A stretch of 12,294 nt of DNA. Origin: an uncultured archaeon (GTDB taxonomy: Archaea > Iainarchaeota > Iainarchaeia > Iainarchaeales > GCA-2688035). The stretch lies in NCBI GenBank assembly GCA_964354805.1, contig CAYHBD010000011.1:1-12294 (forward strand). The letters are read 5' to 3'. Position 1 is the first letter of the stretch; each line of letters begins with the position of its first letter. Positions 3,809 to 8,013 of the stretch are shown in pieces. The notes under the pieces are model-generated. The model made no database searches. It had not been told where the DNA came from and was given only the letters and a program-made list of their open reading frames with translations. The translations under genes were made by a program, and so were the position numbers.

Positions 3809-4894
3809 CTAAAATCGTTGGAATCTTTTTCCCAGTTGCTCGAACTTTCCTTCAATTATTGCTTGCCTCGCCTGCTTCACCAAATTCGCAGTAAAGTGCA
3901 AATTGTGCAGCGATAAAAGCATTTTGCTGTTCTCTTCCTTCACTTTGAACAAATGGTGCAGGTATGCCCTGCTGTGCTGCGTGCAGACAGGGCAGGCGCA
4001 TTTAGCATCCAACGGCCTGAAATCAAATTTGAACGCGCTCTTGCACACATCAATGTTTCCCTTTTCAGTGAAAGCCAGGCCGTGCCTTGCAGTCCTTGTC
4101 GGAAAACAGCTGTCAAAAACATCAATGCCGAGGGCAATGCACTGCAGCAATTCCAGGGGCGAGCCAACGCCCATGAGATAGCGGGGCTTTTCTTCCAGGA
4201 TTATTTTATTGCTCAATGAAACCATGCGCAGCATTTTCTGCTTTGGCTCTCCAATGCACAGTCCGCCCAAAGCAATTCCGTCAAAATCAATTGAACTGAT
4301 TTGTTCAGCGCTTTTCCTCCTGAGCTTTTCAATCGTTCCCCCTTGGCAAATTCCAAACAAAAGCTGCTTTTTTGCTTTGTGCGCTTCCCTGCACCGCTTT
4401 GCCCATTGGAATGTTCTTGCAGCGCTTTCAGCAATTCTTTTTGCATTGCTGCCGTGCAATGGAACATCATCAAGGCACATTGCGACATCAGAGCCAAGGG
4501 CATTTTGTATTTCAATGCATTTCTCAGAGCTGAGAAAGCTGCGGCTTTTGTCAAAAGGGTTTCTGAAAAAAACCCCGTTATCGTTTATTTTTAACAAAAA
4601 TTCTTCACTTAGCACCTGGAAGCCGCCTGAGTCAGTGAAAATTCCTTTGCTCCAGTTCATGAAGCTATGCAGTCCGCCTGCTTTTTTTATTACAGCCAAG
4701 CCTGGCTGCAGGGAGAGCAGGTAAGCGTTTGCAATAAAGCACTGCACGCCAGCTGCCCTGCATTCATCAAGCGAAATCCATTTCAACGCCGCTTTTGTTG
4801 CAACAGGCATGAAAAGAGGAGTTTGAATTGTGCCGTGCGCTGTGTGCAGCAGCCCTGCCCTTGCTTTTCCGTCTGTTGCAATTATTTTGAACAC
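3809..4894 (-). CDS. tgt: tRNA-guanine transglycosylase, bacterial/eukaryotic (queuosine, G34) type
   Basis: ARAG..HG.IQTPLFMPVAT, GGLHSFMNW, TDSGGFQV, QGG, GGLCIGE, KPRYLMGVG, FDSCFPTRTARHG, zinc site CACPVC...RAYLHHL...LHNL. At 361 aa it has no C-terminal PUA extension of the archaeosine TGT. GTG start. Confidence 0.93.
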   Translation of the reverse strand: MFKIIATDGKARAGLLHTAHGTIQTPLFMPVATKAALKWISLDECRAAGVQCFIANAYLLSLQPGLAVIKKAGGLHSFMNWSKGIFTDSGGFQVLSEEFLLKINDNGVFFRNPFDKSRSFLSSEKCIEIQNALGSDVAMCLDDVPLHGSNAKRIAESAARTFQWAKRCREAHKAKKQLLFGICQGGTIEKLRRKSAEQISSIDFDGIALGGLCIGEPKQKMLRMVSLSNKIILEEKPRYLMGVGSPLELLQCIALGIDVFDSCFPTRTARHGLAFTEKGNIDVCKSAFKFDFRPLDAKCACPVCTQHSRAYLHHLFKVKEENSKMLLSLHNLHFTANLVKQARQAIIEGKFEQLGKRFQRF

Positions 4895-4927
4895 AGCAAA
4901 TCACTTCAAATGAGAACTGTTTAATTG

Positions 4928-4970
4928 TTTTCTTTTGGTACAGCTTTTCTTTTCCCAAAAGAAAAGGTGT
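4928..4970 (-). repeat. 43-bp hairpin repeat copy 1 nt downstream of tRNA-Val
   Basis: Minus strand ACACCTTTTCTTTT-GGG-AAAAGAAAAGCTGT-ACCAAAAGAAAA, near-identical to 2380-2422 and 8191-8233. Confidence 0.88.
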
Positions 4971-4971
4971 A

Positions 4972-5043
4972 TGGACCTGGCCGGAATCGAACCGGCTACC
5001 TTATGCGTGTGAAGCATACGTCATACCAATAGACCACAGGTCC
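4972..5043 (-). tRNA. tRNA-Val(CAC), intronless, CCA not encoded
   Basis: GGACCTG-TG-GTCTATTGGTATGAC-G-TATGC-TTCACAC-GCATA-AGGTA-GCCGG-TTCGATT-CCGGC-CAGGTCC-A folds as a full cloverleaf with anticodon CAC and discriminator A. Confidence 0.96.
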
Positions 5044-5118
5044 AATGAAAACAGCCTTAAATAGCTTTTTCGATGCAAAAATTTAAATACCAAATGCGCT
5101 TAATTGTTATTGGTTTTA

Positions 5119-6080: not shown

Positions 6081-7190
6081 CTAATACCTGTCTATTGTGT
6101 CATAAAATATTATCAGCATTGATTTTTCTCTTTCTTTTTCTGCAAGTTTTTTTGCAGCCGAAAAGGACATGGCGCTTGTGTGCCCCACTTTGTAGCCTTT
6201 CTCGCTTAATTCTTTCAATGCCTCCTGCATTTCCTCTTTTTTTATGAGAATTATGCCATCGGTGATTTCTGCTGCTGAATAGAGGTGCGGGAATTGCACG
6301 CCTATTGCGCCTGTTCCGGGGGCAAAGAATTCTTTGCCCTGCATTTCTTCAATTGAAGGCGGCTTTCTGTGGTAGTTTTTCTCATACCTGCCAGGATATT
6401 TTAATGGATATAGCACTGGCCTTTCAAATGCTTCTATTGCTATTACTTTCATTTTTGGGAAATGCTTTTTCAGTTCCAAGCCAACTCCATACAGTATTAC
6501 GCCGTTGCCTGCTATTCCCAAAAAATAATCTGGTTTTTTTCCTTTAAGCTGCTTTACTATTTCTTTTGCCGCAGTCTGTATTGCCTGCAATGACTCTGTT
6601 ACCTGCGAGTGGTTCACGCAATAAAAGGCTTTTTTACCCGGGTTTTGCAGCCTTTCTTCTTTATTATTGTCCAAAGCTTCCCTCATGGCATTGGCTGCCC
6701 CAAAAACACCCCAGCCCTGCTTTTCAGGATCGGCAATCACTGTTTTGCCGCACTGTGCTCTTGTCAGGTTTTTTCTTTTCTCCGAAATCTCTGCCGGGAG
6801 AAAAGCAATTGTCTCATAGCCAAGCTTGCCTGCAAAGTAACCAAAAGCAGGAGTTGCATTTCCGGAAGAGGTTTCAACCAAAACAAACTTTTCCGGATTT
6901 ATTCCAATCCTCTCCAGTGCACAAAGCAGAACAGGGTAAACCCTGTCATAGTGGCTGCCAGTCGGCCTGTTTTCAAACTCCATTTTAACAAAAAGCCTGT
7001 TGCCGTTCGGCAGAACCAGTCTTTCAAGCGAGGTATGCCCTGGGATTTTCATAAGCTCTTTGAATAATTTTTCTCTTTCCTTGGAAAGCTTTGCCAGCCC
7101 TTTTTTTGGTTTCCATTTAAGCGGCTTTCCTCCACTGCAAAGAATGCTTTTTGCTTTTGGTATTTTTCCTGCTGATTTGCTTGAATACAT
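6081..7190 (-). CDS. Cysteine synthase/tryptophan synthase beta (PLP fold type II) family protein with a non-canonical active site
   Basis: GHTSL, LFVKMEFENRPTGSHYDR (canonical NPxGSxKDR), VETSSGNA, GIAGNG, KVIAIE, VGHTSA, IIFYDTIDRY. Start is either ATG 7190 or TTG 7199. Confidence 0.85.
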   Translation of the reverse strand: MYSSKSAGKIPKAKSILCSGGKPLKWKPKKGLAKLSKEREKLFKELMKIPGHTSLERLVLPNGNRLFVKMEFENRPTGSHYDRVYPVLLCALERIGINPEKFVLVETSSGNATPAFGYFAGKLGYETIAFLPAEISEKRKNLTRAQCGKTVIADPEKQGWGVFGAANAMREALDNNKEERLQNPGKKAFYCVNHSQVTESLQAIQTAAKEIVKQLKGKKPDYFLGIAGNGVILYGVGLELKKHFPKMKVIAIEAFERPVLYPLKYPGRYEKNYHRKPPSIEEMQGKEFFAPGTGAIGVQFPHLYSAAEITDGIILIKKEEMQEALKELSEKGYKVGHTSAMSFSAAKKLAEKEREKSMLIIFYDTIDRY

Positions 7191-7218
7191 ATCAATCAAC
7201 TAAGTTGTGTACCGGATA

Positions 7219-7419
7219 TCACTTTCTGCTTTTCCAGTCTGCAACAAATTTCTCAACGCTTCTATCGTAGCTTTTCTCTGCTTTGGGGCTGAAGAAGCAG
7301 CCCGGCAATTCCCCGTTCTGCCAGTGGTATTTAATGCACTCGCAGCAAACGCCCTTCCTGCTGCAAGGCTCGTAAGTGCAGGGGCAGCTTTGCAGATTCT
7401 TTTCTTTTTTGCATTCCAT
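7219..7419 (-). CDS. Small Cys-rich protein (DUF6485-like, probable metal-binding)
   Basis: MEC...[21 protein letters not shown]...ELPGCFF...YDRS pattern with 8 Cys. GGTGA SD at 7425-7429 favours ATG 7419; alternative start 7431. Confidence 0.75.
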
Positions 7420-7439
7420 CTCTTTCACCATTTTTTTCG

Positions 7440-7823
7440 TTAAATGATTTCCACGTTCTTCATGCCCTTGAAGTGCTTGTCCATTGTTTTTAGTTCAGAG
7501 TTGGTTAACTCAGCTGTGGCCTTGATGATTGAGTCGGCCAATGAAAGGCCTGTTTCAATGCTGATTTCTGCCGCATGAACGGCGATTCTTTCGTCCAATG
7601 CAACAATTTCTGTCAAATCAACTATGTGGGCAATGGCCTGGTTTGCGCTCTGCTCGTTCAGGTCTTTTTTTATTTTTTTGTATACCTCAAACAGGACTAT
7701 TGCAGCTGTCTTATAGGTTTCTTTGTTGGCGCTTTGGATTATTTCCGCAACCCTGCCTGTTTTCTGGCCCTTTGAAAAGTACTCAATCCAAAGGCTGCTG
7801 TCAACCAAAACGTTCACTTTCAT
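7440..7823 (-). CDS. vapC: Type II TA toxin, VapC/PIN-domain ribonuclease
   Basis: [32 protein letters not shown]: all four PIN acidic residues are present. Overlaps the upstream antitoxin. Confidence 0.92.
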
Positions 7824-8013
7824 CCCTCAACCCTTTTGCCGAAACACCTTTCGCCATTCCGGCAGCAGACTTAATGCTCCCTATTTTTACAATCTCAATA
7901 CTGTTGCCCTTTTCAAGCAGGACAAGCTTTTGGCCGGGTTTCAAGCCAAGGTCTTCCCTAGTTTTTTTCGGAATAACTATCTGGAATTTTTCAGACAATG
8001 TCACAGTTTGCAT
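7801..8013 (-). CDS. vapB: Type II TA antitoxin, AbrB/MazE/SpoVT family
   Basis: TLSEKFQIVIPKKTREDLGLKPGQKL AbrB signature; SD GGTGA at 8020-8024; 23-nt overlap with vapC. Confidence 0.9.
   Translation of the reverse strand: MQTVTLSEKFQIVIPKKTREDLGLKPGQKLVLLEKGNSIEIVKIGSIKSAAGMAKGVSAKGLRDESERFG

Follow-up and report, generated by a model that had tools for sequence, protein, structure and literature searches.

The cysteine synthases CysK and CysM belong to PALP, the fold-type II or TrpB-like fold family of pyridoxal 5'-phosphate (PLP) enzymes, and the Schiff-base lysine is regarded as the defining residue of PLP enzymes. The gene described here, PALP-Y, encodes a PALP-family protein, P0001, in which this lysine is replaced by a tyrosine (Tyr81). 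It lies on the minus strand of a 12,294-nucleotide stretch (contig CAYHBD010000011.1 of assembly GCA_964354805.1, termed the window) from an uncultured archaeon of the Iainarchaeota whose genome of 1.38 Mb is 88.5% complete. PALP-Y is intact and maintained by selection, and it belongs to a large, uncharacterized and monophyletic branch of CysK/CysM/CBS-type fold-type II proteins, referred to below as the Lys-less clade. The fold and the superfamily are known, and the catalytic apparatus of the clade would be new.

The CysK and CysM enzymes share the two-domain fold of P0001 and supply its best sequence-family models (cysK and cysKM). Elements common to CysK and P0001 are the KxE strand, the Asp-Arg pair after the Lys position, the E-x-S/T-S-G-N loop, the G-x-G phosphate loop, a further GxG loop, the G-x-S/T-S segment, and the C-terminal D..RY, whereas P0001 differs in being extended by about 40 residues at the N-terminus and in carrying about 15 inserted residues (KYPGxYE...). 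By hidden Markov model scores CBS, SbnA and the cysteate synthase CapA belong to the same CBS-like subgroup, and structures of CBS and CapA1 are among the fold matches; however, these are all K-bearing PLP enzymes, and P0001 scores under the cut-off of each. In TrpB a histidine directly before the Schiff-base lysine (GSHK) contacts the PLP phosphate, and the phosphate loop contains an asparagine (GGGSN). These two residues resemble His80 and Asn229 of the Lys-less clade, but TrpB keeps the lysine and P0001 scores with the CysK subgroup, not with TrpB.

Two described systems lack the lysine. The N-terminal module of Caenorhabditis elegans CBS-1 is a fold-type II domain in which the PLP-binding lysine is replaced by glutamate, a phosphate-loop glycine is lost and no PLP is bound (PMC3316156). 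This degenerate, inactive and PLP-free module is the only Lys-less fold-type II example found in our literature searches, and it differs from the clade in being one half of a single protein, whereas the clade is large and free-standing with the glycine loop and the N1 residues near-invariant. The closest mechanistic precedent, offered as an analogy only, is the sugar 3-dehydratases ColD, E1 and SpnQ, dependent on pyridoxamine 5'-phosphate (PMP). In these enzymes a histidine replaces the catalytic lysine and serves in acid/base catalysis, the cofactor is bound without a covalent link, and E1 requires a separate NADH-dependent reductase (PMC8987622). Five members of the Lys-less clade likewise have histidine at the Lys position and some members are fused to a reductase. 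The dehydratases differ in having fold type I (aspartate-aminotransferase) rather than type II and nucleotide-sugar substrates, they are not homologous to P0001, and E1 and SpnQ carry a [2Fe-2S] cluster, unlike P0001.

Tyr81 and the Lys-less clade

Direct translation of the open reading frame (ORF), which is open throughout with no internal stop, gives a product of 369 amino acids with an ATG start at 7188-7190 and a TAG stop at 6081-6083; an alternative TTG start at 7199 would lengthen the protein by 3 residues. P0001 matches Pfam PALP (PF00291) with 113.5 bits against a cut-off of 35 over residues 56-362. The top NCBIfam models are cysK (91 bits), cysKM (87), SbnA (72) and cysM (65.4), for which the equivalog cut-offs are 345-394 bits, and P0001 fails the cut-offs of both cysK (TIGR01139, 350.95 bits) and cysM (TIGR01138, 394.2 bits); the lower scores to CBS (47 bits) and CapA (40 bits) are also under cut-off. 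The AlphaFold2 (AF2) model of P0001, built with the alignment, has a predicted local distance difference test value of 95.1 and a predicted template-modeling (TM) score of 0.92, and the protein is modeled with the two-domain CysK fold. The best Foldseek matches in the PDB are CysK structures (8srv and others, with Staphylococcus aureus CysK represented by 8srt/8srv) with TM scores of 0.70/0.81 and 26% identity. Next in rank are CBS, beta-cyanoalanine synthase, CapA1 and DcsD, and the matches to CysK, CBS and beta-cyanoalanine synthase have a probability of 1.00 and TM scores of 0.7-0.87. In a profile search of PDB sequences every hit was a K-bearing CysK, none scoring above 175 bits, compared with 230-457 bits for true family members, and no solved clade member was found among them; no member of the clade appears to have a solved structure.

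Tyr81 lies opposite the Schiff-base lysine in three alignments, namely HMMER/phmmer to solved CysK chains, MAFFT with E. coli CysK and CysM included, and hmmalign, where the aligned motifs are GS-V-K-DR in S. aureus CysK and GS-V-K-CR in E. coli CysK (K42). The CysK motif S-x-K-D/C-R is lost in P0001, with Tyr81 in place of K42. The replacement of the lysine by tyrosine, the intact full-length ORF and the motifs NRPTGSHYDR, ETSSGN, GIAGNGVI and C-terminal D..DRY had all been reported in the initial annotation of the window, and each is found at the place given there (Table 1). A change from AAA/AAG to TAT requires two base substitutions, which rules out a single-base error as the source of Tyr81, and the tyrosine is also present in the 94% identical ortholog P0002 from two independent other samples. 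An assembly error or a one-off mutation was thus rejected on the two-base change, the independent samples and the conservation of the clade. With tyrosine in place of the cofactor-anchoring lysine, P0001 must work differently from every characterized relative.

The tyrosine is a property of the family rather than of this gene. A first alignment had Tyr in 52/52 homologs, down to 28% identity, with His80 near-invariant, and extending this to 178 Lys-less homologs, down to about 27% identity, gave Tyr in 168, His in 5, Phe in 5 and Lys in none. A profile search against 1.84 billion cluster representatives retrieved 1,102 proteins at E<=1e-30 (50%-identity representatives). Among the 200 sequences in hand the Lys column contains Y 182, F 5, H 5 and K 8, the eight K-bearing sequences being canonical GVGTGGT proteins, mostly long multi-domain forms. 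In an LG tree of 192 domains rooted with K-bearing relatives a single clade on a long branch unites all 178 Lys-less sequences. Its support is 0.79, rising to 0.996 when the single K-bearing sister P0182 is included; P0001 is placed within a 30-tip all-Tyr subclade, and the His and Phe variants nest within the Lys-less clade. The sister P0182 (GSHKDR, NQS, GTGAL, GHTSAA and IFYD..KY) already has the histidine before the lysine and the FYD segment, and it is possibly an evolutionary intermediate. The clade extends across DPANN archaea, Patescibacteria, Fidelibacterota/Marinimicrobia, Latescibacterota and Acidobacteriota.

PALP-Y is under purifying selection, with a ratio of nonsynonymous to synonymous substitution rates (dN/dS) of 0.23 at a dS of 0.13 compared with the 94% identical ortholog at locus L005. 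The suggestion in the initial annotation that the protein is repurposed and not decaying is therefore upheld, by this ratio and by conservation of both the Lys-to-Tyr change and the altered glycine loop throughout a monophyletic clade of 178 sequences; the homolog search that it proposed finds that the SHYDR motif defines a conserved clade and that the close homologs are without the lysine.

Residues changed and kept in the cofactor and substrate pocket

The pocket residues of the 178 clade members were compared with those of 14 K-bearing relatives, E. coli CysK and CysM among them. Where two coordinated changes at the cofactor site had been described initially, the coordination is borne out but the count is too low, as at least six clade-specific positions are changed. 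In addition to Tyr81 (Tyr in 168/178, CysK K42), His80 occupies the position of CysK V41 (Val/Ile in canonical enzymes, His in 171/178 of the clade), Leu123 that of R84, Asn193-His194 those of Q143-F144 (canonical Gln/Phe; Asn in 147/178 and His in 171/178), Asn229 that of T178 (Asn in 162/178) and Tyr363 that of P300 (Tyr in 168/178). P0001 contains the complete clade signature S79 H80 Y81 D82 R83, for which the respective frequencies are 148, 171, 168, 158 and 169 of 178, together with the remaining clade motifs N193 H194 S195, G228 N229 G230 and F362 Y363 D364...R368 Y369. It matches the clade at every key position except V231/I232.

This exception is located in the phosphate loop, which is changed as initially noted but in a different register, with CysK G177-T178-G179-G180-T181 lying opposite G228-N229-G230-V231-I232. 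The CysK sequence GTGGT thus becomes GNGVI in P0001, compared with a family consensus of GNG[TS][ST]; V231/I232 are present in P0001 and its 94% ortholog, close relatives have GNGTI, and Thr/Ser are found in most of the clade. Both phosphate-loop glycines are kept (G228 in 177/178 and G230 in 174/178). The serine of the CysK G-I-S-S segment hydrogen-bonds the pyridine N1, and the equivalent pair in the clade is Thr/Ser338 (176/178) and Ser/Thr339 (172/178), preceded by G336 (177/178).

In CysK the asparagine loop provides binding for the carboxylate of the substrate and for O3' of PLP. It is retained in P0001 as E106-T-S-S-G-N111 in the alignment with CysK, in agreement with the earlier description, and is kept in the clade as E106-x-S/T-S-G (E106 in 165/178, G110 in 178/178). 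Position 111 is Asn in 94, Ser in 62, Thr in 13 and Cys in 6 sequences, and is small and polar in 175/178. The C-terminal D..DRY, also described before as kept, is represented by D364 (171/178) and Y369 (159/178), both common to CysK/CysM, and further kept positions are K69 and E71 in the first strand, D82-R83, E210, E253 and G292 (177/178).

The changed residues vary together. His80 and His194 are both present in 163 of the 168 Tyr-bearing members, and the five Phe variants are confined to one 7-tip subclade (support 1.0) in which His80, His194, Asn229 and Tyr363 are mostly lost too. The Tyr-to-His variants retain His80 (5/5) and His194 (4/5), and Ser/Thr replaces Asn229 in all ten Tyr81 variants (5 His and 5 Phe). 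This covariation indicates that the clade-specific residues behave as one functional unit.

Gene neighborhoods and possible functions of the clade

Sixty-two loci were gathered from GTDB representatives and earlier look-ups, covering Iain-, Micr-, Woese-, Pace- and Nanoarchaeota, many Patescibacteria, Fidelibacterota/Marinimicrobia, Latescibacterota and Acidobacteriota. A divergent TrmB-family regulator is present in 22/62 loci, a sigma-54-type AAA+ activator of 670 amino acids in 9/62, and AsnC-type regulators in 4/62. The sigma-54 activator begins 5-10 nucleotides downstream on the same strand in four Marinimicrobia-type loci; an assignment of this activator as PrdR-like was rejected, the match (129 bits) being to the generic AAA+ core only, with NifA at 130 bits. 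Four loci from two phyla contain a Na+/solute symporter with PutP as the best NCBIfam match (352 and 271 bits, under the 515-bit cut-off), and a FadL-like outer-membrane channel is found in six. In the Marinimicrobia/Fidelibacterota loci L044, L050, L051, L056 and L091 the order is a FadL-like channel and a protein of 340-355 amino acids, then divergently the Lys-less PALP gene and the sigma-54 activator, with the PutP-like symporter following in L050, L051 and L091. This arrangement resembles an operon for taking up and breaking down some solute; the divergent 340-355-amino acid neighbor has no Pfam, NCBIfam, PDB or atlas match.

A ProC-like Rossmann oxidoreductase gene adjoins the Lys-less PALP gene in 3/62 loci, once as a same-strand overlap and twice convergently with a 4-nucleotide overlap, and a ProC-like domain is fused C-terminally to the Lys-less PALP domain in about ten 90%-identity clusters (P0054, P0069 and P0205-P0211). 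The nearest solved and curated relatives of this domain are pyrroline-5-carboxylate reductases (3gt0, 40.8 bits; TIGR00112, about 30 bits), and it contains a GGxGxxG (GxGxxG) motif and an invariant T-K-G-G, which we take to resemble the substrate motif of these reductases. Operonic neighbors in ten further loci are mixed (methyltransferase, HNH, HIT, TFIIB and unknown proteins). Taken together the neighbors are suggestive of a metabolic enzyme that is inducible and acts on a small molecule brought in from outside, with proline-like imino acids or cyclic imines as a weak lead to the substrate class.

The reading favored here, with a probability of roughly 0.4, is that P0001 and its relatives are inducible enzymes other than cysteine synthases that would hold a B6 vitamer non-covalently, with no internal aldimine. 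A phosphorylated vitamer, PLP or PMP, would sit in the pocket and the substrate would condense directly with the free cofactor, while Tyr81, His80 and His194 would perform the acid/base steps normally carried out by the lysine. The substrate may be a small amino or imino acid, imported or salvaged from outside, and in some lineages the product or substrate could be a cyclic imine for the ProC-like NAD(P)H reductase, tentatively a proline-like compound. The retention of the phosphate-loop and N1 residues, the gain of the co-varying His-Tyr-His-Asn-Tyr set and the enzyme-like context together speak for an active site that still functions and is no fossil. Of the roles suggested in the initial annotation (amino-acid sensor, scaffold, or enzyme with non-covalent PLP/PMP), the dedicated regulators, the transporter and the reductase fusion favor an enzyme over a scaffold.

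Several points weigh against this reading. Just 53% of the clade keeps the O3'-binding asparagine, and P0001 has hydrophobic residues (V231 and I232) in place of the two phosphate-loop hydroxyls. Every Tyr81 variant has Ser/Thr at position 229, a pattern that could reflect Tyr81 folding into the cofactor site and filling it. PdxS was not found in the 88.5%-complete host genome, nor was a ProC-like gene above cut-off. The copy in the window has no adjacent regulator, transporter or reductase, so the context clues are provided by distant relatives only; a TrmB homolog of 27% identity is encoded elsewhere in the host genome. The proline-like lead involves few loci and family scores below threshold.

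The relaxed asparagine, the two lost phosphate-binding hydroxyls, the covariation of Asn229 with Tyr81 and the PdxS result also count for the main rival explanation, in which B6 has been abandoned and the pocket has been filled or rebuilt by Tyr81, His80, His194, Asn229 and Tyr363 for acid/base or metal-assisted catalysis. The substrate would then bear a carboxylate or phosphate, and His/His/Asp/Tyr are possible metal ligands. It is also consistent with the joint appearance, around the former active site, of six residues that are polar or aromatic and specific to the clade, and with the loss of the whole set together in the Phe subclade. We consider this explanation less likely than the favored one, as we know of no metal-site motif for the PALP fold and the host keeps other K-bearing PALP enzymes, meaning that B6 is available. 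Furthermore, G228, G230 and the N1-binding Ser/Thr pair are near-invariant, whereas a loop glycine is lost in the PLP-free CBS-1 module (PMC3316156).

That same module, as a Lys-less and PLP-free structural unit, provides a model for a non-catalytic pseudoenzyme, which would act as a small-molecule sensor, binding partner or scaffold on the CysK fold (PMC3316156). CysK itself moonlights as a binding partner, and CysK:CdiA complexes are among the Foldseek matches. Loss of a catalytic lysine is moreover the classic signature of a pseudoenzyme. A role of this kind is nevertheless improbable for the clade, where the near-invariant polar residues His80, Tyr81, His194, Asn229 and Tyr363 have been gained and do not reflect drift, the gene is typically alone under its own regulator and beside transporters, the ProC-like fusion argues for metabolism, and no conserved protein-partner gene was found among the 62 loci.

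More speculative still is the proposal that the clade constitutes a new catalytic class of fold type II, widespread in DPANN archaea and Patescibacteria. Its members would rely on a His-Tyr-His arrangement instead of the lysine, either with PLP/PMP in free exchange or entirely without B6, and would act on secondary-amine or cyclic-imine substrates, in some lineages with direct coupling to a ProC-like NAD(P)H reductase. Such compounds are atypical substrates for lysine-aldimine PLP enzymes. Candidates under this proposal would be proline-like imino acids, for example hydroxyproline, thioproline and pyrroline carboxylates.

A normal PLP enzyme or cysteine synthase, with K69 forming the aldimine, is very unlikely. 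K69 is the only well-conserved lysine in the clade (168/178), but the K-bearing enzymes conserve it to the same degree (14/14; K31 in E. coli CysK) without using it for the Schiff base. No clade-specific conserved lysine is found among the alignment columns, with Lys reaching 50% or more in just two others, 241 and 356, so the relocated lysine that the initial annotation had named as a possible objection was rejected as unlikely; the cysK score of 91 against 351 bits and the canonical CysK/M elsewhere in the genome also speak against this function. It is scarcely credible, finally, that the gene is decaying or that a one-off mutation or assembly error produced the tyrosine, given the intact ORF, the dN/dS of 0.23 and the 168/178 conservation of that residue. 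The same applies to membership of a four-gene AbrB-VapC-DUF6485-PALP system, which is contradicted by the gene distribution at the locus described below.

The PALP-Y locus, its host and wider implications

The host encodes a tRNA-splicing endonuclease and Alba, and the closest relatives of PALP-Y are labeled Candidatus Iainarchaeum or Diapherotrites. Besides PALP-Y the genome contains three PALP genes. These encode the canonical CysK/M P0204 (NPSGSIKDR, GIGTGGT, 305 bits to cysKM), TrpB, and P0203 (G000:C29:12219-13115; L004:1480-2505), an unclassified K-bearing fold-type II protein with the motif NPTGTHKDR, in which a histidine precedes the lysine, and with no NCBIfam match at E<=1e-10. The presence of a canonical CysK/M and TrpB indicates that B6 is in use in this host and that cysteine synthase is already covered. 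An ortholog of 72% identity is found beside an MCM-like ORF (identified by eye) on a contig titled 'Candidatus Falkowbacteria bacterium' (L038 / G013:C23, JAFCBY010000040.1), where the bin label is probably wrong.

Table 1. Coordinates of PALP-Y, its sequence motifs and neighboring genes in the window, and of adjacent ProC-like genes at other loci
Feature	Position	Strand	Remarks
Lys-less PALP-fold ORF (P0001)	6081..7190	minus	369 aa + TAG; translation, Pfam, AF2, Foldseek
Motif NRPTGSHYDR (residues 74-83)	6942..6971	minus	CysK counterpart NPxGSxKDR; holds clade-specific His80 and Tyr81
Tyr81 codon TAT	6948..6950	minus	At PLP Schiff-base Lys position (E. coli CysK K42)
ETSSGN (residues 106-111)	6858..6875	minus	Asparagine loop, kept; alignment with CysK
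NHS (residues 193-195)	6606..6614	minus	Clade-specific; in place of CysK Q143-F144 substrate-loop residues
GIAGNGVI (residues 225-232)	6495..6518	minus	Altered phosphate loop; aligned with CysK GTGGT
GHTS (residues 336-339)	6174..6185	minus	Kept; CysK counterpart G-I-S-S
FYDTIDRY (residues 362-369)	6084..6107	minus	C-terminus; Tyr363 clade-specific; D364 and Y369 common to CysK/CysM
DUF6485 gene, Cys-rich 70-aa protein	7219..7431	minus	Upstream neighbor; one insertion-site edge; not part of system
Coiled-coil protein gene, 323 aa	5104..6075	plus	Convergent downstream; 5 nt from PALP stop; other insertion-site edge
AbrB/MazE-VapC (PIN) pair	7440-8013	minus	23-nt overlap between the two genes
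Adjacent ProC-like genes, three DPANN loci	L057:5294-6034; L062:7155-7904; L064:7161-7910

The minus strand of the window carries AbrB/MazE, VapC, DUF6485 and PALP-Y head to tail, with spacers of 28 and 5 nucleotides on either side of PALP-Y. The 28-nucleotide spacer is too short for a promoter, and PALP-Y is thus probably co-transcribed with DUF6485. A four-gene system would be supported by this order and by recurrence of the DUF6485-PALP pair in the 94% relative (L005), but VapBC is absent from the site in L005, and PALP-Y occurs in only 2/41 related genomes compared with 24/41 for DUF6485, there in single copy. In six relatives the site is empty, with DUF6485 adjoining the coiled-coil gene across spacers of about 10-420 nucleotides, and in the relative G013 PALP-Y and DUF6485 are on different contigs, PALP-Y there being beside another gene, the MCM-like one. 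Orthologs in other Iainarchaeota (L007, L036 and L037) are in unrelated contexts; the samples with L005 and L036 are from groundwater. A functional link of PALP-Y to DUF6485 or VapBC was rejected on this distribution and the empty-site synteny, as was the AbrB-VapC-DUF6485-PALP system, for which there is no conserved co-occurrence in independent lineages. The 2/41 distribution, the empty sites and the unrelated contexts show PALP-Y to be an accessory cassette that has inserted between two genes lying side by side in relatives; a search for a compositional island gave no signal, the GC content (0.41-0.44) being similar to that of the flanks.

DUF6485 is a conserved small protein in this archaeal lineage, usually convergent with the coiled-coil gene, and is also found in the control genomes of T. 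maritima and M. jannaschii. At the L005 site a small membrane-protein gene is followed by DUF6485 without the AbrB-VapC pair, and the absence of this pair marks AbrB/MazE-VapC as a toxin-antitoxin module of recent insertion. In G013 (L032) DUF6485 has beside it a VapC fragment of 88% identity. On the other side a bacterial-type TGT gene and a tRNA-Val (3809-5044) lie between a DUF87/HerA-like ATPase gene and the coiled-coil gene, whereas in the relatives L027 and L033 DUF87 lies so near the coiled-coil gene that a TGT gene would not fit. The TGT gene and tRNA-Val look like a second insertion at the locus, common to L005.

Neither in Pfam nor in NCBIfam was a model found for the Lys-less clade itself, the atlas look-up returned generic PALP clusters only, and full-text searches, with subscription journals outside their coverage, found no literature on the clade. 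Among the public records sampled, members are labeled 'cysteine synthase', 'pyridoxal-phosphate dependent enzyme' or 'PLP-dependent lyase/thiolase'. Given these names, metabolic reconstructions of ultra-small symbionts may credit members with a cysteine synthesis that they probably lack. About a thousand sequence clusters have the change from lysine to tyrosine together with five other coordinated changes, held under selection. If the members of the clade are enzymes, they would be cases either of B6 chemistry that dispenses with the lysine in this fold or of a PLP scaffold turned into a different catalyst, and either outcome, if true, would widen the known reaction space of a very well-studied enzyme superfamily.

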